Below are positions 9,125 to 57,557 of a stretch of 64,000 nucleotides of DNA, piece by piece (the first letter of the stretch is position 1; each line of letters opens with the position of its first letter). Source of the DNA: Candidatus Doudnabacteria bacterium (GTDB taxonomy: Bacteria > Patescibacteriota > Doudnabacteria > UBA920 > VMFF01); NCBI GenBank assembly GCA_028286905.1, contig JAQBQP010000002.1:245458-309457 (forward strand), given 5' to 3'. A model generated the notes under the pieces. The model was not told the origin of the DNA. It did not search any database and saw nothing but the letters and a program-made list of their open reading frames with translations. The position numbers and the translations under genes were made by a program.

Positions 9125-9268
9125 ATCTTGTCTGCAGGCGTCGACCCTTTATCAAAGATAGAGGCGCGGCGCTTGCTCAGAGAGAGCACATGCTTATCTA
9201 AGCATGGTCTGCACCATCACATCGGATGGCTGCGACAGAATTCACAAGAGAATATATGAGGTTGGCAC

Positions 9269-10894
9269 ATGCAGAACCGCATCGCTCGCATCGTTTTCGC
9301 GATCGTGTGCTCTCTCGCCTTTGTCGCTCAAAACGCTGTGGCCCAAGCAAAGGTTGCAGGCGTTGAGGTGACGAAGCAGGGAGTCACGGTTCGTTCCTGG
9401 CGCTTCCTCGATCCCGAGGAGCTGTTCAAGGATTACCACAACGCGCCGCAGGCACAGATCGTCAATCTGACTTGTGCCGACACGGCGCAGGCGGGAGCGA
9501 TCATTAACGCCGAGCCGCATACCTTCGGTGGGATGCTGCAGCGGCTGAATGCGTTGCGGGCAGGGTGCAAGAACACCATGCAGGGCAGCTTCACCCGCAA
9601 CGTCCGCTTGGTCACCGCCAGCGAGATGTCGGCGGCAGAACTGCTCGGCTACAATCGCGTCGATGCCAAGACCTACACCACGAACCGGAGCCCCTGGAAG
9701 CAGAAAGGCTTCAAGACGGTGAAGGAACTGTGCCTGTACGCCAAGAGTGACAAGGCGTATCAGAATCTCTTGGTGTCGAAGGACAAGGAAGAGGGTGCAG
9801 AAGTTCTGCGCTACCTTTCGAATTCCTGCGAGACGCTCGATCCGCATGTCTCGGAGATCGAAGCCCCAATCGGGGCGTTGGTCGCTGAAGATCTCGGACT
9901 GAGCGGCGCGGCGCACAATGTCTGGCTGACCGAGCCGGTGAAGCTGGTTCAGGTCGAGACCGAAGACGGCGCCGTCCGGTGGTTCAAGTACAGCTGTGCG
10001 AACGAGGATTTCCCCGTGCTGCGCGTCGAGTACACGATCTCGTACGAGGTACCCGCGCCGAAGTTCGCGCGGTTGGCGATCAGCAAGCAGGTTCGCCTCT
10101 GGGATCACGCCGCAACCAAGCGTTATTCCGACGAAACGTGGGCGAAGTCGGTTACGGTCGATTCGACGCAGGCGTCGCAGTTGATGCCGGTGCAGTATCT
10201 GGTGGTCGTGAAGAGCGTTGGTGACGCAACGGCAACCAACGTACAGGTTCGCGACGAGCCCTCGGTTCGCGACGGACGCTGGTTGATCCTCATTGACCCT
10301 AACTCGCCGTTGGCGAATCCGGTCAATGCAGGCAGCCTGCAGCCGGGCGACTCGCTGGTCTATTTGGTTCATGCTACGGCGCGATCCGGGTGGGTTGGCA
10401 CGGAAACGAATCATGCATTCGCAAAGGCAGACAATGCCTCTGAGGTGCAAGATGTCGCTCAGGTGATTCGGCAGAAAGCGCCCGCGCCTGTCGCGGTTGC
10501 AGAAGCCGGGTTCTACTGCGGGCGGGGTTTCAAGGAAGCCGCTGTTTGTGTCTTGGCTACCTGCGCTACCGTTACGGTGGTCGGGGACGCCGCTGGCTAC
10601 AAGAACATCTGCGGCTTTCCACTCGGCGGCACGGAAGAGAAGACCGGCAACAAGCCGGTCGGTCAGCCGATCACGCAGCTCGATGTCATCTCCTTGCGGA
10701 GTGGCGCGAGCTTAAGCGTCGGCATCAGCCCGTCGCCAGTTGCATCCTCTCAGATGCAGCTGCGTAACTCCAACCTCATCCCGATACTTCCCAGTGTTGG
10801 ATCGCGTCTGAGCATTCGCTCATACCAGTTCAACGCCGGCGTGTCGGTAGGTTTCAACAAGATTCAGTCAGTACTCGGCAAGTTCGCGAAGTAG
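9269..10894 (+). CDS. secreted Cys-rich protein with DUF11-like repeat, encoded in a GC-rich foreign-looking island
   Basis: Signal peptide (MQNRIARIVFAIVCSLAFVAQNAVAQA). DUF11-like segment (YLVVVKSVGDATATNVQVRDEP). About 60% GC against about 38% in the flanks. GAGGT RBS 8 nt upstream of the ATG. Confidence 0.6.
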   Translation: MQNRIARIVFAIVCSLAFVAQNAVAQAKVAGVEVTKQGVTVRSWRFLDPEELFKDYHNAPQAQIVNLTCADTAQAGAIINAEPHTFGGMLQRLNALRAGCKNTMQGSFTRNVRLVTASEMSAAELLGYNRVDAKTYTTNRSPWKQKGFKTVKELCLYAKSDKAYQNLLVSKDKEEGAEVLRYLSNSCETLDPHVSEIEAPIGALVAEDLGLSGAAHNVWLTEPVKLVQVETEDGAVRWFKYSCANEDFPVLRVEYTISYEVPAPKFARLAISKQVRLWDHAATKRYSDETWAKSVTVDSTQASQLMPVQYLVVVKSVGDATATNVQVRDEPSVRDGRWLILIDPNSPLANPVNAGSLQPGDSLVYLVHATARSGWVGTETNHAFAKADNASEVQDVAQVIRQKAPAPVAVAEAGFYCGRGFKEAAVCVLATCATVTVVGDAAGYKNICGFPLGGTEEKTGNKPVGQPITQLDVISLRSGASLSVGISPSPVASSQMQLRNSNLIPILPSVGSRLSIRSYQFNAGVSVGFNKIQSVLGKFAK

Positions 10895-10926
10895 TTCGCG
10901 GCAAACCGGTTCTGTTGAATCGCAGT

Positions 10927-10960
10927 AACGGCAAGGTGAGCTATTCCCATAGCTCACCTT
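10927..10960. repeat. perfect 15-bp inverted repeat (GGCAAGGTGAGCTAT-tccc-ATAGCTCACCTTGCC) at the right edge of the GC-rich island
   Basis: Seen directly in the sequence. No downstream T-run, so not a classic intrinsic terminator. Confidence 0.7.
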
Positions 10961-11070
10961 GCCACACTTCACTTTTGACTCGTAAGAGTAGTTTGTAAGA
11001 ATTGCAAATTTCTCTTACTAGTTAAGCCAATAATTAGTAAGTAATTAACCGCATAATTTAAGGAAAAAAC

Positions 11071-35935: not shown

Positions 35936-35968
35936 GGATCGTATGCAAAATGCCTACGACCCTTTTTT
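35936..35968. terminator. bidirectional intrinsic terminator-like hairpin (GGATCGTA-loop-TACGACCC) flanked by A-run and T-run
   Basis: 8-bp stem with one mismatch, 11-nt loop, T6 downstream and A5 upstream. The last codons of the minus-strand ORF 35954..36409 read through it. Confidence 0.5.
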
Positions 35969-36409
35969 GATAACACGCGGTGCGCTGTGCCCTGGCGTTC
36001 CGATTGGCCGTTGAGCTGTCGGATTAGAAAGGGTTACAACGATCGGAAGCTGCAGCAGCTCGACATGTGAGCCTCGTGGATCGCTAACCTTCCGAATCCT
36101 TATCGGATCTCCGTTCAGTTCTTCTCGCTGCCTGACGCAATCCTGGAGCCTAGTGGCGATCTGTTGCAACAGATCTGTTGCTTCTGGAAAATCTTCCCGT
36201 AAAGAAAGCATCGATCCGGGCAGCTTGGTGTGCACATAGCGATCCAGGACTGTTACCAGAAACGGATCGTGAACAAGGCACCACCGATTGCTGATTGACC
36301 AGACTTTGATCCAATAAAGCTTTTCGTACCGCTCCAGGTTCATTTCTGGGGGCCGGTCTTCCGAGGGAAGAATTTCGACCACCCGAATAACCTTGTGGTC
36401 CATTTTCAC
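35954..36409 (-). CDS. hypothetical protein encoded in a GC-rich islet
   Basis: 151-aa ORF at about 53% GC in a 38% GC background. GAGGTG just upstream of the ATG. No recognisable domain. C-terminal residues are encoded by the terminator T-run. Confidence 0.35.
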   Translation of the reverse strand: MKMDHKVIRVVEILPSEDRPPEMNLERYEKLYWIKVWSISNRWCLVHDPFLVTVLDRYVHTKLPGSMLSLREDFPEATDLLQQIATRLQDCVRQREELNGDPIRIRKVSDPRGSHVELLQLPIVVTLSNPTAQRPIGTPGHSAPRVIKKGS

Positions 36410-36526: not shown

Positions 36527-36911
36527 CGGCCTCAAGTAATCTAGATAATCGCTGCTTGGTTTACCAAGTAGAGGAAAGTCCGAACACCCCTAGGTGCGAA
36601 CTTAGGAAGCAAGTTGCCAGGAAATCTGGCCGGGTATACCCAGGTTTGAATGGTTCACGTGACTGTTCAAGAATGGATTAAGCCCAGGGATAGTGCAACA
36701 GAAACATGTCGCCGATGGCCGGTCGTAAGATCGGATCAGGTAAGATTGAAATCGTGCGGTAAGAGCGCACGCGTATGTGCAGAGATGTACTGCGGTGAAA
36801 ACCCAACTTGGTGCAAGGCCAAATAGGCCTTGATCGTAAGATCAGGGCGGGTTGGCTGCTTAGACAGATGATTATCCTCGACAGAATTCGGCTTACCGGG
36901 TTGCTTGAGGC
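36527..36911 (+). ncRNA. rnpB: RNase P RNA (bacterial type A-like)
   Basis: Universal motifs GAGGAAAGTCCG, AGTGCAACAGAAACAT, GCGGTAAGAGCGCAC, CAAGGCCAAATAGG, ACAGAATTCGGCTTAC. P1 pairing between GCCTCAAG (5') and CTTGAGGC (3'). Confidence 0.85.
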
Positions 36912-43722: not shown

Positions 43723-45141
43723 ATGAATTTAGATAATATAAAAAAAATATATTTTATTGGGATCGGCGGAATTGGCATGTCTGCTGCTGCTGGTATTGCG
43801 CGAGCAAAGGGCTTCGAGGTTTCTGGTTCCGATGCCGCTGATATTTACCAGCCGTCTAAAGGAATTTTGGATCAGTTTAAAATTGATTATAAAATTGGCT
43901 ATAATGCCGATAATTTTCAAGGGGCTGATTTGGTAGTTGTAACAACGGCAGTAGATAATAAGAACCCAGAACTAGTTAAAGCCATAAACCTGACCGTTCC
44001 AATTATCGGCTTCGCGGAATTGTTGGGGACTTTAACAATCGATAAAAATCGAATCGTGGTAGTAGGTACGCATGGGAAAGGCACTACTTCCGGCTTAATT
44101 TCTTATGCTTTAAAGAATTTGAATGATTCAGGATTTTTTGTCGGCGGTGTTCTAAACAATTTTCAAACAAACTTCTATTTTGGCAAAGGAAAAGATTTTG
44201 TTTTGGAAGGGGACGAATATAAATCTACATACAACAACAGCAGCCCAAAATTTTCATATTATTTCCCAAACATTCTTTTAATAAATAATATTGAATTTGA
44301 TCACCCGGATCTTTATCCAACTTTAGAAGCATTCAAAGAGCCTTTTCACGCTCTGGCTGAGCAGATGCCAGAAACAAGCTTAATTGTTTATAATGCCGAC
44401 GATCAAAATGTTGTCGATGTAATTCGAAATACTAAAGCTAGAAAACTTGGTTTTGGATTTTCAGATTTTGCTGAAATCAAAGCACATAGAATCGAGCCAA
44501 GTAACGGAACTTTCAAAATCAAAATCACCTGGAATGAAGCTTTATTAAATCTTAAAGAAGATATTTTTAGCACCCAGCTGCCCGGGTTGCCGTATGCCTA
44601 TGATAACCTTGCAGCAATTGCGGTCTTAATTAGCATCGGCTTTTCAGCTGAGCAAATCAAAGGCTATACTGAAAGCTATACCGGCATAAAACGACGTTAC
44701 GAAATCATTGAAAATGATGAAATTGCAATAATAGATGATTACGCCCATCATCCCACCGCAGTGCGGCAGACTTTAGAAGCGACCCGCCAAAAATATCCGC
44801 AAAGACGCATTATTTGTTTCTTTGAACCGCATACTTACTCACGGACACGCGAAACCTTGGACCAGCTAGCAAAAGCTTTTAATAGCGCAGATTTGGTCTA
44901 TTTGGCTGAGGTCTATCCGGCTCGTGAACAAAAACTTCCTTCCAGTATTAGTTCTGCCGAGGTGGTTGAAAAGATTATAAAAAATCAACCAAACGTTATC
45001 TATGTAAAAGATAAAGTTGACGCTTTAGAAAAGTTTAAAAAAGTTGTTAAAAAAGATGATGTTATAGTAGTTATGGCAGTTGGTTCATTTAACACTTTGG
45101 TTTATGATTTAAAAGACGCTTATAAGAATCTTATAAAATAA
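43723..45141 (+). CDS. murC: UDP-N-acetylmuramate--L-alanine ligase
   Basis: IYFIGIGGIGMSAAA N-terminal Rossmann motif. VGTHGKGTTSG P-loop. YAHHPTA and PHTYSRT C-terminal motifs. Confidence 0.8.
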   Translation: MNLDNIKKIYFIGIGGIGMSAAAGIARAKGFEVSGSDAADIYQPSKGILDQFKIDYKIGYNADNFQGADLVVVTTAVDNKNPELVKAINLTVPIIGFAELLGTLTIDKNRIVVVGTHGKGTTSGLISYALKNLNDSGFFVGGVLNNFQTNFYFGKGKDFVLEGDEYKSTYNNSSPKFSYYFPNILLINNIEFDHPDLYPTLEAFKEPFHALAEQMPETSLIVYNADDQNVVDVIRNTKARKLGFGFSDFAEIKAHRIEPSNGTFKIKITWNEALLNLKEDIFSTQLPGLPYAYDNLAAIAVLISIGFSAEQIKGYTESYTGIKRRYEIIENDEIAIIDDYAHHPTAVRQTLEATRQKYPQRRIICFFEPHTYSRTRETLDQLAKAFNSADLVYLAEVYPAREQKLPSSISSAEVVEKIIKNQPNVIYVKDKVDALEKFKKVVKKDDVIVVMAVGSFNTLVYDLKDAYKNLIK

Positions 45142-45142
45142 T

Positions 45143-46021
45143 ATGCAAAACAATGTTCAGCTGGCAAAATTTACTTCTTTTAGAATCGGCGGACCGGCGA
45201 AGTATTTTGTTGAAGCAAAAACCGATAATGATATTGTTGAAGCTTTAAGCTTTGCGAATGAAAACAAATTGAAATTTTTTGTTCTTGGTTCCGGCACGAA
45301 TATTTTAGTTCAAGATCAAGGATTTGATGGCGTTGTTATTAGAAATCAGTTAAAAGATTTAAAGCTGGAAGACGGTTTAGTCGTTGCTGACAGCGGGTTG
45401 CTATTAGTTTTAATAAATCAATTTGCTAATAAAAATGGCAGAGTCGGTTTTGAAAAACTAAGCACGGTGCCCGGAACTTTAGGCGGCGCGCTATATAATA
45501 ATGCCCATTGGCAAGATGATTTGCTGTCTTATTATGTTCAATGGGTTGAAGTAATAGATCCTGCTGATCCCGGGTTAAAAATTCAACGACTAACCAAAGA
45601 ACAATTAGATTTCGGTTACGACAGCTCATTGATTAAAAAGAAAAATCTGGTAGCATTAAGAGCAGCGTTATTATTGCCAGAGGGGGATGTTGAACAATCT
45701 AGGAAAACGATGCTCTCTTACATGAAAAGTCGTTCCGACAGTCAGCCTTATGGCACTGCAAACAGCGGCTGCATGTTTCAAAACATTCCACAGACTCTTG
45801 GGCCTGGAAATCATGGAACCTCAGCGGGTTACTTGATTGATCAGGCGGGCTTAAATGGGATGCGAGTTGGCGATGCGGTAATATCAGAAAAGCATGGAAA
45901 CTTTTTTATAAACGAAGGACATGCTAAAAGCGGAGACATCTTGAAGCTTGCTGAAATTGCTCGAGAAAAAGTGAAAGCTAAGTTTGGTGTTAATTTAGAA
46001 TTTGAAGTAAAAGTAATTTAG
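45143..46021 (+). CDS. murB: UDP-N-acetylenolpyruvoylglucosamine reductase
   Basis: FAD-binding N-terminus (LAKFTSFRIGGPAKYF, VLGSGTNIL). MurB C-terminal domain. Confidence 0.8.
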   Translation: MQNNVQLAKFTSFRIGGPAKYFVEAKTDNDIVEALSFANENKLKFFVLGSGTNILVQDQGFDGVVIRNQLKDLKLEDGLVVADSGLLLVLINQFANKNGRVGFEKLSTVPGTLGGALYNNAHWQDDLLSYYVQWVEVIDPADPGLKIQRLTKEQLDFGYDSSLIKKKNLVALRAALLLPEGDVEQSRKTMLSYMKSRSDSQPYGTANSGCMFQNIPQTLGPGNHGTSAGYLIDQAGLNGMRVGDAVISEKHGNFFINEGHAKSGDILKLAEIAREKVKAKFGVNLEFEVKVI

Positions 46022-46036
46022 AAAGGTAAAAATAAA

Positions 46037-46375
46037 ATGGCAAATGTAAACCTAAAAGTAACGCATACGGTTTTAAGCGAATCAGTTCGAGAATATGCGC
46101 AAAAAAATATTGATAAGCTTCAAAAGTACTTGCGCCCAGAAAATAAAGTTCATTTGGAACTAGGAGCTGAGTCAAAAAATAGAGATGGTTTACGTTATCG
46201 AGCAGAAATTACAATTATGCCGAAGTCAGAAGTGTATGCTGATGCTTATGGTCATGATTTGTTTGAAGCGATTGACTTGCTAATGCCAAAAGTAAAAGAA
46301 CAGCTAATGAAAATGAAAGATAAGAGAGTTTCAGAAAGAAGAAGAGACGGCGCTAAGCGTACCGGAAAGATCTAA
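46037..46375 (+). CDS. hpf: ribosome hibernation promoting factor (S30EA/RaiA family)
   Basis: MANVNLKVTHTVLSESVREYAQKNIDKL and the conserved beta-alpha-beta-beta-beta-alpha pattern. Confidence 0.8.
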   Translation: MANVNLKVTHTVLSESVREYAQKNIDKLQKYLRPENKVHLELGAESKNRDGLRYRAEITIMPKSEVYADAYGHDLFEAIDLLMPKVKEQLMKMKDKRVSERRRDGAKRTGKI

Positions 46376-46397
46376 AATAGCTCGTATAAAAGACAGC

Positions 46398-46430
46398 GAC
46401 CGGCAAGAGAGAATTCTCTTGCCGGTCTTT
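46398..46430. terminator. perfect 14-bp palindrome (GACCGGCAAGAGAG-aattc-TCTCTTGCCGGTC) centred on an EcoRI site
   Basis: Seen directly. Followed by a weak T-run (TTTG). Lies at the boundary between hpf and the GC-rich islet. Confidence 0.55.
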
Positions 46431-46449
46431 GCGTAGTGTTCTGGATCGA

Positions 46450-46854
46450 TCAGGCGGTTTGCAACCGCAGATTGGGGTGTGCGCCATCCCGAGCGAGCTC
46501 GACATGCTTGATCAGCATCGCTATGTGCCCGAACGGTTTGGGCAGAACATGCTGGAAAAGCTTCAAGCTGAACGCCGCGACTTCGCCGCCGGTAACTCCG
46601 ATGGCATAGCCACGCCGGGTCGCCATCTTGTAGATGGTGGCAATTTCGTTGGCATTCATGTCGCCGAACGAGAAGTTGCTGACGATCAGGCAGTCGAACT
46701 CGTTGTGCTGGATTTGCTGCCTTGCCTCGGCGCCGTTCTGGACGATCGTGATGTTATCGCGCGGCAAACCCTCACCCCGCGCTAGGATTCGCGGATACAT
46801 GCTATTCATGCTTGGATCGCGCGAGATGATCAGGATGTTAATCGAATCAGACAC
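46450..46854 (-). CDS. receiver-fold (CheY-like) pseudo-receiver protein encoded in a GC-rich islet
   Basis: GTG start 9 nt after a perfect AGGAGG. Receiver-like layout (ILIISRD, then DCLIVSNFSFGDMNANEI, then AIGVTGG, then KPF). The phospho-acceptor position appears to be Asn. About 57% GC. Confidence 0.5.
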   Translation of the reverse strand: MSDSINILIISRDPSMNSMYPRILARGEGLPRDNITIVQNGAEARQQIQHNEFDCLIVSNFSFGDMNANEIATIYKMATRRGYAIGVTGGEVAAFSLKLFQHVLPKPFGHIAMLIKHVELARDGAHPNLRLQTA

Positions 46855-47059
46855 TTGTACAGCCTCCTTAAGGCGTTGTTGAAGCCAACGGATCGCTGGT
46901 GTTCAAGAAACAACATATTAACACAGTTTATAGCATAAGTCAATGCAAAAGCTCTAAAAATAAGGCGGTTTTAGAGCGGTTTTAAACCTTGTTTTAACCC
47001 TAAAAAATGCCTATAATAAACCCACGGCATTTAATAAAAAAAGGATATAAACGACACAA

Positions 47060-49735
47060 ATGGCATTTCTAGAAAAGATTTTTGGCGGCAACAAACAGGT
47101 TGTTTCGAAGTTACAGAAAGTTGTCGATCAGATTAATGATTTAAAACCTAAATACGAAGCTTTAAGCGAGGAACAAATTAAAGAACAAGTTCAAGCTTGG
47201 AAGACTCTGTTAAAAGATAAAGATTATGATCAGCAAAAAAAGACTTTGGACGAACTTCTTCCAGAGGTTTTTGCGATAACCAGAGAAGCGGCAAAGCGCA
47301 GCATTGGCCAAAGCCACTATGATGTTCAGCTGATTGGTGGAATAACCTTGCATCGTGGACAGATCGCAGAAATGCGTACTGGTGAAGGAAAAACTTTAAC
47401 TGCAACTTTGCCTTTGGTTTTGAACGCCCTAACTGGACGTGGTACGAACTTGGTAACCGTTAACGATTACTTGGCTCGATGGCATGCTTCTTTAATGGGG
47501 CCGATTTATCACGCCTTGGGTTTAAGCGTGGCCAGTATTCAACATGAAAAATCTTTTTTGTATGATCCGAATTATCAACCAGAACAAGAAGAGATTGATC
47601 GCTTAGAAGGCGAAGTTCAGGGTTTTGTTTTGGATGTAAAGCATATGCGTTCAGTTACCAGAAAAGAAGCCTACGCCGCGGACATTACTTATGGGACTAA
47701 CAACGAGTATGGTTTTGATTATTTGCGCGACAACATGGTTGGCAATGTTAATCAAATGGTGCAGCGCGAACAGCATTTTGCAATTGTCGATGAAGTCGAC
47801 AGTATTTTAATTGATGAAGCCAGAACGCCTTTAATTATTTCAGCGCCGGATGCGGACCCAACCGATAAATATTATCAGTTTGCAGAGCTTGTTAAAAAGT
47901 TAGATAACGGTGCTGATTTTGTTGTTGATGAAAAGAAAAAAGCAGTTTCGCTTACAGAAGAAGGAATTGCAAAATTAGAAAAACTTTTGGGTGTTGAAAA
48001 TATTTATGAACAAGAAGGACTGTCGACCGTGCACCATATCGAGCAGGCTTTGCGTGCTCGCACTGTCTTGTTTGAAAGAGATACGCAGTACGTTGTTCGC
48101 GACGGCGAAATTATTATTGTCGATGAATTTACTGGCCGCTTAATGTTTGGCCGCAGATATTCTGATGGATTGCACCAAGCGATTGAAGCTAAAGAAGGCG
48201 TAAAGATCCAACAAGAAAGCAAAACTTTAGCAACAATTACATTCCAAAATTATTTCAGAATGTTTAAAAAACTTGCAGGCATGACCGGTACCGCAAACAC
48301 TGAAGCTGAAGAATTTTACTCCATTTATAAATTAGATGTAGTAGAGATCCCAACCCATAAGCCCCTAGTGCGTATTGATAAACCGGATGCGGTTTATAAA
48401 AATGAGTCCGGAAAATTTGCTGCGATTACTCGCGAAGTTCAAACTCGCCACAAAAAAGGTCAGCCAATGCTGATTGGTACAGTTTCAATTCAAAAAAATG
48501 AACTGCTTGCTGAGCACTTGCGTAAAGCCGGTTTGCAGTTTGAATTGTTGAATGCCAAAAACCATGAACGCGAAGCACATATTATTTCTCAGGCCGGCCG
48601 TTTCGGAGCTATCACTGTGGCGACAAATATTGCTGGTCGCGGGGTCGATATTTTGTTAGGCGGTAACCCGATTGATCCCGAAGAAGCCAGACAAGTGCGC
48701 GAAGCCGGCGGTTTGGCAGTAATTGGTACCGAAAGACATGAATCTCGCCGTATCGACAATCAGTTAAGAGGACGTTCTGGACGTCAAGGCGATCCGGGCT
48801 CTTCACAATTCTTTGTTTCAGTAGAAGACGATTTAATGCGTTTATTTGGTGGCGATCGTTTGCACAGCATGATGGAACGTTTGGGAATCCCTGATGATCA
48901 GCCAATTGAAAACGGATTAGTTTCTAAATCTATCGAATCTGCACAGAAGAAAATTGAAGGCTTGAACTTTGATACTCGTAAACATGTTTTGGAATATGAC
49001 GATATTATGAACAAGCAGCGCGAAATTATCTATAAGAAGCGCCGCGAATGGTTAGCAGAAGATGCAAATTTAAAAGAACAAATATTGGAACTGATTGATG
49101 AAGAAATTCGTCAGATTATTAGCGCACATTTTCAAACTGAAAATGAATTACAAACGCTCTTTGATTCCTTAAATATGATTTTTCCAGTTGGCAATACTGA
49201 GGCCGCAAAGATGCAAGAGATAAGTAATCAAGCTGGTAACGCAGAATTTGCTTTGATTGATTTTGCGATTGATCTGGTGCATCAGCGTTATGAAGAAAAA
49301 GAAAAAGCCATGCCAGAAACGGGGGTAATGCGTCAGATTGAAAAGGCGACTGCGTTACAAAGTTTAGACACGCTTTGGATGGAACATTTGGATACGATGG
49401 AACATCTTCGTGAATCTGTTGGTTTGCGGGGCTATGGTCAGCGCGATCCATTGGTAGAATACAAACGCGAATCTTTTGATTTGTTTAAACGGCTGTTAAT
49501 TGCAATTGATAAAAATATCGTCAACACAATTTTTCATATTGGAATTGTGCCGCAGCAAGTGGCGCCGATTGATTTGGTGGTTAATTCTGCACCGATCGCT
49601 CAGGCTTTGAATGAAGACGGTGGCGAAGTCGGACGCAATGATAAATGCCCTTGCGGATCTGGACGAAAGTGGAAGAAATGTGGAATGATCAATTCTCCCG
49701 AACATCAACAATTTATGGAGAAGAAAAATGCATAA
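47060..49735 (+). CDS. secA: preprotein translocase ATPase SecA
   Basis: DEAD-like motor motifs (MRTGEGKT, VDEVDSIL). C-terminal zinc-binding CPCGSGRKWKKC. Confidence 0.95.
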   Translation: MAFLEKIFGGNKQVVSKLQKVVDQINDLKPKYEALSEEQIKEQVQAWKTLLKDKDYDQQKKTLDELLPEVFAITREAAKRSIGQSHYDVQLIGGITLHRGQIAEMRTGEGKTLTATLPLVLNALTGRGTNLVTVNDYLARWHASLMGPIYHALGLSVASIQHEKSFLYDPNYQPEQEEIDRLEGEVQGFVLDVKHMRSVTRKEAYAADITYGTNNEYGFDYLRDNMVGNVNQMVQREQHFAIVDEVDSILIDEARTPLIISAPDADPTDKYYQFAELVKKLDNGADFVVDEKKKAVSLTEEGIAKLEKLLGVENIYEQEGLSTVHHIEQALRARTVLFERDTQYVVRDGEIIIVDEFTGRLMFGRRYSDGLHQAIEAKEGVKIQQESKTLATITFQNYFRMFKKLAGMTGTANTEAEEFYSIYKLDVVEIPTHKPLVRIDKPDAVYKNESGKFAAITREVQTRHKKGQPMLIGTVSIQKNELLAEHLRKAGLQFELLNAKNHEREAHIISQAGRFGAITVATNIAGRGVDILLGGNPIDPEEARQVREAGGLAVIGTERHESRRIDNQLRGRSGRQGDPGSSQFFVSVEDDLMRLFGGDRLHSMMERLGIPDDQPIENGLVSKSIESAQKKIEGLNFDTRKHVLEYDDIMNKQREIIYKKRREWLAEDANLKEQILELIDEEIRQIISAHFQTENELQTLFDSLNMIFPVGNTEAAKMQEISNQAGNAEFALIDFAIDLVHQRYEEKEKAMPETGVMRQIEKATALQSLDTLWMEHLDTMEHLRESVGLRGYGQRDPLVEYKRESFDLFKRLLIAIDKNIVNTIFHIGIVPQQVAPIDLVVNSAPIAQALNEDGGEVGRNDKCPCGSGRKWKKCGMINSPEHQQFMEKKNA

Positions 49736-54234: not shown

Positions 54235-55124
54235 TGCTAAATATCATCAAACATTATAAATTTTGGTTCGGCGTTTCAACCGCATTGTTGATTGCAAGTA
54301 TTATTTCTTTAGCGATTTTCGGTTTAAGATTCGGTATTGATTTTAAAGGCGGCACTGTAACTCAGCTTTCATTTGCAAAAGCGCCAAATTTGGATCAGAT
54401 CAAAGCAGTTGTTGCCAAAGATACAGATGGCGCACAAATTCAGTCCGCTGGCACTAGCGATGTAATTATAAAAACTAAACCTTTAGAAAAACCTGAACAT
54501 GATAAGCTTGAAGCAGACATCAAAGCGCAAGTAGGGGATTTCACCGAGAAATCTTATACTTCGATTGGGCCGATCATCGGACAAGAACTTCGGTCTAAAG
54601 CAATTTATCAATTACTGCTTGTCGCTTTAGGTATTGTTTTATACATCGGCTATGCATTCCGTAAGGTGACTAAGCCTATTACCGCATGGAAATTTGGTTG
54701 GGCCGCAGTGATTGCGCTTGTTCATGATTTGTTCATAGTTGTTGGTTTGTTTTCGATCCTTGGACATTTCTTTAAAGTTGAAATTGATTCTTTGTTTGTA
54801 ACTGCTTTGCTGACAGTGTTAGGTTTCTCTGTTCACGATACGATCGTGGTATTCGACAGAATTAGAGAGAACTTACGTACCGAAGCCGGACAACCGATCG
54901 ATTACATTGTTAACCACAGTATCAACCAGACAATCGTTCGCTCATTAAACACTTCTTTAACAGTTTTGTTTGTCTTGCTTTCCTTGTTGTTGTTCGGCGG
55001 TGTAACAATTAGATATTTTGTATTAGCATTGTTCATTGGTATTATTGCCGGAACCTACTCATCTATTTTTATCGCTTCGCCAATCCTTGTGATTTGGGAA
55101 CGCTGGCAGTCTAAACGCGCATAA
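54234..55124 (+). CDS. secF: protein translocase subunit SecF
   Basis: GIDFKGGTVTQL motif and 6 TM helices. Start set to the ATG at 54234 (TAATG overlap with the secD stop), not the upstream in-frame ATG. Confidence 0.85.
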   Translation: MLNIIKHYKFWFGVSTALLIASIISLAIFGLRFGIDFKGGTVTQLSFAKAPNLDQIKAVVAKDTDGAQIQSAGTSDVIIKTKPLEKPEHDKLEADIKAQVGDFTEKSYTSIGPIIGQELRSKAIYQLLLVALGIVLYIGYAFRKVTKPITAWKFGWAAVIALVHDLFIVVGLFSILGHFFKVEIDSLFVTALLTVLGFSVHDTIVVFDRIRENLRTEAGQPIDYIVNHSINQTIVRSLNTSLTVLFVLLSLLLFGGVTIRYFVLALFIGIIAGTYSSIFIASPILVIWERWQSKRA

Positions 55125-55165
55125 ATAGCAGATCTTAAATGCATTGCTAAAAAATAATCGTTGAT

Positions 55166-55196
55166 AAAACCTTCATTAAAATCGAAGGTTTTTTCT
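55166..55196 (+). terminator. rho-independent terminator (AACCTTC-attaaaatc-GAAGGTT then T5)
   Basis: Hairpin plus T-run after secF. Confidence 0.75.
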
Positions 55197-55248
55197 TGCA
55201 GTATTGAGCAAACAAGATTACAATATAAACAAATATTAAATAAAACAT

Positions 55249-55794
55249 ATGTTCATTTGGCTAATAGTTATTGTTGTTGTAGTTTTGCTGGTAGTGGGCA
55301 TGTTTAACGGTTTGGTTCGCGCACGCAACCTTGTTAAAAACAGCTTTGCAGATATCGATGTTCAATTAAAGCGCAGATATGATCTTGTGCCAAACCTGGT
55401 TGAAACTGTTAAAGGCTATATGAAGCAGGAAAGTGGCGTGCTAGAAGCAGTTACTAATGCTCGCGCACAAGCGCAGTCTGCAGGCGGCAATCTTGCTAAC
55501 AGAGCAACAGCGGAGAACAACCTTGGTCATGCGATTACAGGAATTTTTGCAGTTGCTGAAAATTACCCGCAGTTACGCTCTTCTGAAAACTTTCAACAAT
55601 TACAGAGCCAGCTTTCAAGCTTAGAAAATGATATTCAAAGCGCTCGTCGTTATTACAATGCGGCGGTTCGTGAGTACAATAATAAAATTCAAGTTTTCCC
55701 AAATAATATATTTGCAGGAATGCTTGGCTTTGGCGCCGAGCAGCCATTTGGAGCAGATGAAACCGAACGCCAAAACGTTCAAGTAAAATTTTAA
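55249..55794 (+). CDS. lemA: LemA family protein
   Basis: N-terminal TM plus LemA core (LVRARNLVKNSFADIDVQLKRRYDLVPNLVETVKGY ... ENRISVARRYYN-like region). Confidence 0.85.
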   Translation: MFIWLIVIVVVVLLVVGMFNGLVRARNLVKNSFADIDVQLKRRYDLVPNLVETVKGYMKQESGVLEAVTNARAQAQSAGGNLANRATAENNLGHAITGIFAVAENYPQLRSSENFQQLQSQLSSLENDIQSARRYYNAAVREYNNKIQVFPNNIFAGMLGFGAEQPFGADETERQNVQVKF

Positions 55795-55799
55795 ATAAA

Positions 55800-57557
55800 A
55801 TGCAAATAATTTCTTTAAAACAGAAATTGCAAACCATAGGCTTTTTAATGCTTATGGTTTTTGCGTTTGTACCTGTTAAGACTGAAGCGGCATATTCAGA
55901 AGATATTAAAAGCTTTGCTAGTACACTAAAGATTAATAATGACGGAACAGTAAATGTCTTAGAAAAGATTGTTTATGAATTCGGGACTAATCAGCGCCAT
56001 GGAATATTTAGAGACATTACTTTATCATCCAAAGATGCGCCAACTATTAGCATCAGCAATGTTGCGGTGACAGACTCCAATGGGATGGCCTACCCTTTTA
56101 CGCAGAGTGAAGATTCTGCGCTTCACTTGAAAATAGGCGATCCAAATAACACAATCAGCGGAGAAAAAGAATATGACATTTCTTACACTGTTAGTAACGT
56201 AATTCGCGGCTTCTCCAATTATGATGAATTTTATTGGAATGCCACTGGCAATGCCTGGACTGTGCCTATTTCGTATTCCAGCGCGGAAGTGCAACTGCCA
56301 AGCAATTGGCTGCTGGATCCTGCTGTGCTTCCGAAGATTCAAAATTCTTGTTACCCTGGTACGTTAAACATGCAAAAAGCCGCTTGCACAATCACTTCGA
56401 GCGATGATGGCGGCACTTATGTGTTTTCTTCCGGGCCAACCGATCCGGGGCAAGGGCTAACTATAGATACCAGTTTTCCTAAAAGGCTTGTTACAAATTT
56501 GGCGACTGGTACACCTGTTGATCCAAGTAAAAAAACCACAACCCAAAAGATTTTAGGGATTCTGATCCCGATAGGAACTGGGCTTTTTGTAATTATTTTT
56601 GCGATCTTTTTTGTTTTGTCTAACCGTAAAGTAATAATTCCTAAAGAATTAAAAGGACAACCAATAGCTCCTTGGTATGATGCTCCGGAAGAAGTAAACG
56701 CTGCTGACATCGCGTATCTTTTGAACAGATCCTTCGATAAAAAAGAATTTGGTCTAATCTTTATTGATCTAGCTGTTAAAGGCTATCTAAAAATAAAATA
56801 TATTCCTAAACAAAGCGTCTTTAGTAGTGAAGATTATGCTTTTTTAAAGCTTAAAGAAGACGATGGTTTAGAGCCGGCCTATAAAAGACTGTTTGACTAT
56901 CTTTTTACAGGTGTAGATACAGTTTTATTATCCGATATTAAAAGTGATAACAGAGCCGTCGCTTCTGTTTATTCAAAGATTGGAGATGACCTTAGGTCTA
57001 AATTGATTAATAAAGACTATTTAAAGGCTAGCGCTCTGAATTTAAAGAATACTTCTAAATTTGGAGGCGGTGGAGTTCTCGTTTTTGCTTTGGCCTTCGC
57101 TTTTCGGCCACTTTTAATAATTTCCGTGCCACTTATTTGTTTAATTTTCATAATCGCTTACTATCGCAATTTAAACAATGTAACTCCTAGCGGTATTGAA
57201 TTGTTTAAAAAGATTTTAGGGTTCAAAGATTTCTTAACACTAACCGAATCAGATCGATTGCGGTTGTTAAATGCTCCGTCTCTTAAACCAGAGATGTTCG
57301 AAAAGTTTTTGCCTTACGCGATGGCTTTTGGCATTGAGAAGGAATGGGCGAAAAAATTCGAAAGCTTAGCAATCACTCCAAGTTGGTATGAAGATAGCCG
57401 TTATGGTTATGGCGCGCCAATTAATACTTTAATTTTGGCAAACTTTATTGGCAATCTAAATTCTGGAGTAGCTAGCGCCTCCACCTACAGTAGTGGTAGA
57501 AATGGTGCAGGGTATTCAGGAGGAGGTTCTGGCGGTGGAGGAGGCGGTTCTTGGTAA
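55800..57557 (+). CDS. DUF2207 domain membrane protein (conserved LemA partner) with Gly-rich C-terminus
   Basis: Signal peptide, extracytoplasmic domain, TM helices and terminal GGSGGGGGGSW. LemA-DUF2207 adjacency is the conserved arrangement. Confidence 0.7.
   Translation: MQIISLKQKLQTIGFLMLMVFAFVPVKTEAAYSEDIKSFASTLKINNDGTVNVLEKIVYEFGTNQRHGIFRDITLSSKDAPTISISNVAVTDSNGMAYPFTQSEDSALHLKIGDPNNTISGEKEYDISYTVSNVIRGFSNYDEFYWNATGNAWTVPISYSSAEVQLPSNWLLDPAVLPKIQNSCYPGTLNMQKAACTITSSDDGGTYVFSSGPTDPGQGLTIDTSFPKRLVTNLATGTPVDPSKKTTTQKILGILIPIGTGLFVIIFAIFFVLSNRKVIIPKELKGQPIAPWYDAPEEVNAADIAYLLNRSFDKKEFGLIFIDLAVKGYLKIKYIPKQSVFSSEDYAFLKLKEDDGLEPAYKRLFDYLFTGVDTVLLSDIKSDNRAVASVYSKIGDDLRSKLINKDYLKASALNLKNTSKFGGGGVLVFALAFAFRPLLIISVPLICLIFIIAYYRNLNNVTPSGIELFKKILGFKDFLTLTESDRLRLLNAPSLKPEMFEKFLPYAMAFGIEKEWAKKFESLAITPSWYEDSRYGYGAPINTLILANFIGNLNSGVASASTYSSGRNGAGYSGGGSGGGGGGSW

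Follow-up and report, generated by a model that had tools for sequence, protein, structure and literature searches.

CpdR, a ClpXP adaptor, is active when unphosphorylated. At the level of genome organization, marine and enteric pangenomics have described replacement-type flexible genomic islands, in which the same slot is occupied by highly divergent versions of an equivalent gene. Pseudo-receivers are defined as domains that possess the receiver fold and from which the acceptor Asp and/or other catalytic residues are absent (PMC12632262). They comprise about 6-13% of bacterial receiver domains, and aspartate-less receivers account for about 4% across all life; the role of receivers that are no longer phosphorylatable was called largely open in a 2025 review (PMC12632262). 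We analyzed a candidate gene of this class located between hpf and secA in a 64,000-nucleotide stretch of a Candidatus Doudnabacteria genome (hereafter, the window). The interpretation that we favor, to which we assign a probability of roughly 0.55, is that this is a real, unannotated pseudo-receiver gene in an ancestral hpf-secA slot, that the resident cassette was swapped for a distant homologue, and that the product would be a phosphorylation-independent binding partner.

The GC-rich segment of about 500 bp that had been predicted between hpf and secA is borne out by the GC profile. In 200-bp windows, the GC content is 0.545-0.575 across 46400-46899, compared with 0.32-0.42 in the flanks and 0.393 for the window as a whole, and the composition profile places the islet at 46395..46895 (55-58% GC), with edges good to about +/-10 bp. 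The islet contains the putative terminator hairpin, a minus-strand ORF, a Shine-Dalgarno site and about 30 nt of 5' leader (Table 1); it is the third of the GC-rich islets that we consider in the window. Two Logan contigs (run SRR13312974) match the window letter for letter over their entire length and cover islets 1 and 3 together with their junctions; the islet sequence is therefore not an artefact of one assembler. The same locus was not found in another strain, and the clusters of the flanking proteins had no other members.

Table 1. Positions in the window of the genes and signals at the hpf-secA locus and of the two other GC-rich islets
Feature	Position	Strand	Remarks
Islet 1	~9130-10965, ORF 9269-10894	+	about 60% GC, GC3 0.75
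Islet 2	35954-36409	-	151-aa orphan JWO40_525, no Pfam match; beside RNase P RNA (rnpB) 36533-36911
murC	43723-45141	+	
murB	45143-46021	+	
hpf (ribosome hibernation factor)	46037-46375	+	Ribosomal_S30AE E 4.7e-14; native left flank, convergent with receiver gene
Hairpin	46398..46427		perfect 13-bp arms 46398-46410 / 46415-46427, 4-nt loop
Putative pseudo-receiver gene	46450..46854	-	134 aa, stand-alone, GTG start, TGA stop
Antisense 93-aa ORF	46504..46785	+	JWO40_535, MDB4940110.1; gene call of GenBank and Logan
Shine-Dalgarno AGGAGG	46863..46868	-	8 nt upstream of GTG
Predicted sigma-70-type promoter of receiver gene	46915..46943	-	TTGACT, 17 nt, TG-n-TAATAT; in native AT-rich DNA; consensus scan
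secA	47060-49735	+	native right flank, divergent from receiver gene

The two strands of the islet compete for the role of the coding strand. The order GC3 > GC1 > GC2, which is the normal one for a GC-rich gene, is restricted to the minus frame (GC1/GC2/GC3 of 0.56/0.39/0.75); the plus frame, taken in its 118-aa form (46429-46785), gives the mirror pattern (0.76/0.39/0.58) and has no Pfam match. The ribosome-binding site and the terminator accompany the minus frame, and none were noted for the plus frame. Together with the receiver homology of the minus-strand product, the codon-position GC content and these signals indicate that the minus-strand gene is real and that the public annotation has picked the wrong strand, so that JWO40_535 is to be corrected to an antisense ORF, most likely a spurious one. 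Because GenBank annotates this antisense ORF, the receiver gene has no entry in public protein sets, and the 134-aa protein is not found in a collection of 15 billion proteins. It is highly improbable that the islet is instead a chimeric join with DNA of a GC-rich organism or that the plus-strand ORF is the true gene. Such an artefact would be in keeping with the source, a short-read soil-type MAG, with the choice of the plus strand by both sets of gene calls, and with the tendency of GC-rich DNA to yield long ORFs in several frames. A chimera is rejected in view of the identical junctions obtained with a second assembler and of the location of the gene, which coincides in position and orientation with a homologous receiver of a sister species (see below), as would not be the case for a chimeric join; the plus-strand ORF is rejected as a real gene on account of the lack of a family match and the mirror-image codon-position GC content.

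The Pfam Response_reg profile (PF00072) matches only the N-terminal half of the protein (residues 7-58; E 0.13), with 12.9 bits against the gathering cut-off of 30.2. The best match among the NCBIfam profiles, CpdR (NF046022; residues 6-119), is weak as well (E 0.0034), and with 17.4 bits against a cut-off of 180, CpdR orthology is ruled out. An exhaustive phmmer search of 1.84 billion (1.84e9) representative proteins yielded five matches, the top two of which (P0001 and P0002) are false positives, namely, RTX and BACON repeat proteins whose scores are sums of weak matches. The other three (P0003, P0004 and P0005) are single receiver domains above the Pfam cut-off. The best of these, P0003 (E 3.6e-6), itself passes Response_reg with 36.1 bits against 30.2, and its pairwise BLASTP alignment with the window protein has an E value of 3e-16. 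As clues to the origin of the gene, P0004 and P0005 were discarded, being generic receivers in unrelated contexts. No closer relative or donor with identity above about 33% was detected in the phmmer search, and a word-index homologue search, a metagenome protein scan, a plasmid tblastn search and viral scans were all empty.

The AF2 model, which was built from a 6-sequence alignment, has a pLDDT of 76 and a pTM of 0.75 and presents the order b1-a1-b2-a2-b3-a3-b4-coil-b5-a5. Helix 4 is modelled as coil, the pLDDT falls below 50 for residues 125-134, and the short connection between b4 and b5 is common to the window protein and its homologues. The Foldseek matches in the PDB that we read are receivers (e.g. 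PmrA, CheY and NtrC1) with TM scores of 0.6-0.76, the top ones being about 0.7, with the sole exception of a Rossmann-fold protein at ranks 14 and 32. The homology to P0003, the AF2 prediction and the receivers retrieved by Foldseek jointly support the CheY-like layout that had been proposed for the protein, despite the Pfam score below the cut-off, and the protein is accordingly predicted by the model to adopt the (beta-alpha)5 receiver fold.

The active site is where the protein departs from canonical receivers. Asn60 (N60) stands opposite the acceptor Asp that ends beta3 (TD.. versus SN..), without gaps, in the alignments with P0003, P0004 and P0005, with the receivers of a more distant Patescibacteria contig (L085, see below), with CheY and with the PDB receivers, in agreement with the Asp-to-Asn replacement that was initially suspected. 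The acidic pair had been read as RD, but all alignments place S11 and R12 at the DD1 and DD2 positions, with D13 at DD+1; the register was off by one. With the register corrected, both acidic residues, which in receivers bind Mg2+ and lie where beta1 ends, are gone, which strengthens the pseudo-receiver call. Thus, three of the five catalytic residues (both DD acidic residues and the acceptor Asp) are lost, and the conserved Thr at the end of beta4 (T88) and the conserved Lys at the end of beta5 (K106, followed by P107) are kept. The D+4 position, usually Pro, is G64, and the D+8 position, usually Gly, is A68. Judging from the alignments and the structural model, the protein would be a stand-alone pseudo-receiver, or aspartate-less receiver, and hence a member of a known and common class.

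Comparison with the described PsR/ALR domains (Maule et al. 2015, PMC4395418; Bourret et al. 2025, PMC12632262) brings out shared features, namely, the predicted (beta-alpha)5 fold, the absence of the acceptor Asp and the retained T and K. The non-acidic DD2, reported for about 80% of PsRs, and the loss of Pro at D+4 and Gly at D+8, a reported PsR trend, are common to the window protein and this class (PMC12632262). In contrast, the window protein lacks both DD residues, and DD1 is lost in only about 20% of PsRs (PMC12632262). It is further distinguished by being a stand-alone protein of 134 aa from a Patescibacteria member with an ultra-small genome, by its Pfam score, which does not reach the cut-off, and by the canonical receiver that occupies the corresponding locus of a sister species. 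Given the share of pseudo-receivers among bacterial receiver domains cited above (PMC12632262), the description of the pseudo-receiver and its setting as unusual was overstated, and the understanding of pseudo-receivers as a class is unchanged by this example. With CheY, Spo0F, DivK and CpdR, single-domain response regulators that work by binding other proteins, the window protein shares the architecture of a single receiver domain without an output domain; those proteins are phosphorylatable, whereas the window protein has no acceptor Asp.

The gene is accompanied by a set of predicted expression signals. The AGGAGG site and the GTG start codon were correctly recognized in the original prediction, but the spacer, as read from the sequence, is 8 nt rather than 9. 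An ACA(G/A)CCTCCTT motif at this ribosome-binding site is also found upstream of the sister gene. The promoter was predicted by a scan in which consensus matches were no more common than in shuffled sequences (2 found, 1.7 expected); its -35 box and the surroundings (AAGTCAATGC) are conserved in one of the sister loci (L161). Between the divergent promoters of the receiver gene and secA, there is a 9-bp inverted repeat at 46951-46977 (GCTCTAAAA, 9 nt, TTTTAGAGC) that is not conserved in the sister species.

At the other end of the gene, the hairpin starts 22 nt beyond the stop codon. Its folding energies are -26.7 and -27.7 kcal/mol (z -4.8 and -6.3), with none of the 200 shuffled sequences equally stable, and it is followed on the minus strand by the T-run GCUGUCUUUU; the tail on the plus (hpf) strand, CUUUG, is weaker. 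A GC-rich stem followed by a U-tract downstream of the stop codon identifies the hairpin as the putative intrinsic (Rho-independent) terminator of the receiver gene, and it probably terminates the convergent hpf as well, although the plus-strand tail is weak. This is the element that had been described as a 14-bp perfect palindrome centred on an EcoRI site and bounding the islet. The EcoRI site (GAATTC, 46411-46416) is indeed there, on the loop/stem edge of the hairpin, and is incidental to the stem-loop; only the inner 12 bp (AGAGAATTCTCT) are a true palindrome, and the element is really a hairpin. Rather than the boundary of an element, it appears to be an ordinary terminator, and a comparable hairpin, though with another sequence, lies between hpf and the receiver gene of the sister species.

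The history of the slot became accessible through the sister gene. P0003 and its near-identical cluster mate P0006 (GAC1573351.1 and GAC1412471.1) come from two MAGs, 99.9% identical, of one sister Doudnabacteria species, which was reached via the P0003 protein match; scans with SecA gave distant relatives only, the identity reaching at most 61% among the collected genomes and 57% among the collected metagenomes. Both sister loci (L161 and L162) have the order murC-hpf-[receiver, opposite strand]-secA, that is, the receiver gene occupies the same slot in the same orientation as the gene in the window. SecA and Hpf of the two species are 86% and 88% identical, respectively, and the receivers are 31% identical; MurC is only 58% identical, so that SecA and Hpf overstate how far the receivers stand out in divergence. 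The DNA similarity to the sister loci ends at 46353, is patchy and weak again near 46905 and is solid from 46986, and the secA promoter region (46986-47059) is conserved between the two species. Apart from the flanks and the location on the opposite strand, the sister receivers resemble the window protein in their similar length, the shortened beta4-beta5 connection and the motifs IG(V/M)TG and KPF..I.ML. P0003 differs from it in keeping the full complement of catalytic residues (D-E, D, T and K), in having Pro at D+4 and Gly at D+8, and in lacking the 15-residue C-terminal tail that the window protein has.

A more distant Patescibacteria metagenome contig with 49% GC (L085) carries, at 1156-1981 on the minus strand, two tandem stand-alone receivers of native composition, located between murB and secA and divergent from secA, which suggests that receivers recur in the vicinity of secA in part of the phylum. 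In one of these receivers, EA replaces the DD pair. In the more distant relative L002, hpf directly abuts secA. The sister slot and the arrangement in L085 imply that the slot is ancestral to the clade and not a fresh insertion site; the -35 box of the receiver promoter is likewise ancestral. The proposal of a horizontally delivered foreign cassette is accordingly upheld in one part and abandoned in the other: the composition is foreign, but insertion into an empty gap between hpf and secA is contradicted by the canonical receiver in the slot of the sister species and by the conserved -35 box and secA promoter. The locus is occupied in both species, and the presence/absence pattern of an acquired islet is not seen. 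The event at the slot would then be replacement or extreme divergence of a resident gene, not a new insertion.

The coding cassette is clearly compositionally foreign. The GC content of the receiver gene is 0.565, compared with 0.37-0.41 in the neighbours, and GC3 is 0.75 compared with 0.28-0.35; Arg exceeds Lys in the product (R 6.7%, K 3.0%). The relative synonymous codon usage (RSCU) of the gene correlates negatively with that of host genes (r = -0.25) and positively with that of the 541-aa gene of islet 1 (0.76). The sister receiver gene is mildly GC-elevated, with a GC3 of 0.47. Between the window and the sister species, the identity at four-fold degenerate sites is 0.32 in secA and 0.27 in hpf, that is, these sites are saturated. 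With the synonymous sites saturated and GC3 still at 0.75, amelioration reasoning suggests that replacement by a distant homologue is likelier than old residence.

The contrary possibility is vertical orthology: the gene would have descended in place from the shared ancestral receiver, lost its kinase partner and diverged fast while the active site degenerated, the high GC content being either gene-specific or inherited from a GC-rich acquisition before the split, with unequal amelioration. The slot, the orientation, the -35 box and the context of the ribosome-binding site that the two genes have in common, as well as the rank of the sister gene as the best single-domain match among all the proteins searched, fit this scenario. 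So does the elevated GC3 of the sister copy, which may reflect a locus- or gene-specific cause of high GC; the positional pair at islet 2 is alike in this respect (0.55 versus 0.52). Nevertheless, we consider vertical descent unlikely. The two species have diverged to saturation at the four-fold sites of the genes that flank the receiver, and a rough two-state amelioration estimate indicates that, over such a divergence, the window lineage could not have kept a GC3 of 0.75 and the sister lineage one of 0.47; the same rough calculation disfavors the variant with one old acquisition and unequal amelioration. In addition, the amino acid composition is of the GC type, and the codon usage resembles that of GC-rich islet 1, which is unrelated and lies at a distance of 37 kb, a resemblance that points to a common origin outside the host.

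Under the replacement scenario, which we prefer, the cassette consisting of the terminator, the ORF and the ribosome-binding site would have been exchanged after the split of the two species for a distantly homologous copy out of a GC-richer, unsampled gene pool; the promoter would be the native one, retained through the swap. Several considerations weigh against this scenario. A donor for a recent transfer was not found in any of the collections searched, and the swap of the homologue would have to be cassette-precise, without GC-rich traces in the flanking genes. As for mobility signatures that could account for such a swap, there is no tRNA in the window and no integrase, and only chance-level repeats flank the islet. 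A 12-nt imperfect direct repeat (46366-46377 / 46948-46959) was dismissed as one of these, with about 10 such pairs per 1.2 kb by a rough estimate. An origin from a defence system or a phage was likewise rejected, there being no meaningful PADLOC or PHROG match. Compared with replacement-type genomic islands, the locus is alike in the conserved flanks, the very divergent homologue in the slot and the atypical composition; the differences are that a single 0.5-kb gene, not a multi-gene cluster, is involved, that the variable segment is GC-enriched rather than GC-poor, and that the comparison is between two species.

With regard to function, a protein without Asp phosphorylation would take no part in His-Asp phosphotransfer and could act constitutively through its folded surface, as an adaptor or a decoy, by analogy with single-domain receivers and characterized pseudo-receivers. 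A connection with the adjacent secA or hpf would be purely speculative. Limited tests (an H-box regular expression, Pfam profiles run against five G-box candidates and a phmmer search with a single kinase) detected no histidine kinase in the 64-kb window. This result, along with the loss of most of the catalytic residues, the orphan status of the protein and the poor prediction of roughly the last 10-15 residues, would also be expected of a functionless passenger, that is, an intact but idle receiver remnant that recently arrived or is decaying. We deem such a passenger rather improbable because the 134-codon frame is intact and is equipped with a strong ribosome-binding site, a predicted promoter and a terminator, the fold-determining residues are kept along with T88 and K106-P107, and the fold prediction is reasonably confident. 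Moreover, the loss of DD and D combined with the retention of T and K is typical of functional pseudo-receivers (PMC12632262). The matched pair of a canonical receiver and a pseudo-receiver at one locus, with flanking SecA and Hpf that are highly similar in the two species, should be handy for addressing the role of an unphosphorylatable receiver.

The two other GC-rich islets in the window also lie beside recognizable genes. The product of islet 1, annotated as hypothetical (JWO40_502), consists of 541 aa, has a signal-peptide-like N-terminus and weakly matches DUF11; a word-index search with it returned only the protein itself. Its neighbours are a sortase and a 1080-aa DUF11/CLIPPER repeat protein, and the islet ends in a perfect hairpin of its own with a 15-bp stem (10931-10964). 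The counterpart of islet 2 in the sister species (L162, 19573-19929), located by the RNase P RNA, is 29% identical and also GC-elevated, and islet 2 recurs in the same context in a second metagenome, on a contig of 1.6 kb with 98.5% identity (L169, JGI 3300064033). The three slots, namely, that of the receiver between hpf and secA, that of the 151-aa gene beside rnpB and that of the 541-aa secreted protein beside the sortase, may fit a common picture of swaps. In its general form, the proposition would be that small accessory genes in fixed slots are repeatedly and precisely exchanged for very distant homologues from an unsampled GC-richer pool, with the native promoters kept; we regard this generalization as doubtful. 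If the swap interpretation is true, the window would document gene-by-gene replacement in a mode not described before, together with a natural pair in which a receiver gave way to a pseudo-receiver. GC-rich islets at conserved slots, with sister counterparts that are about 30% identical, would in turn indicate that an ultra-small genome, presumably that of a symbiont, receives genes from an uncharacterized source.

Several additional differences between the window and related loci were observed outside the islets. Just past secA, the segment 49709-50581, with nucleoside 2-deoxyribosyltransferase-like and ASCH-like genes, has no DNA counterpart in L162, and the same applies to a stretch of about 2.4 kb (55100-57548) that includes most of a gene for a DUF2207 membrane protein (55761-57554). 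The murB gene, which in the window is located between murC and hpf, is missing from this position in L161, L162 and L001 and is present in the more distant L002.
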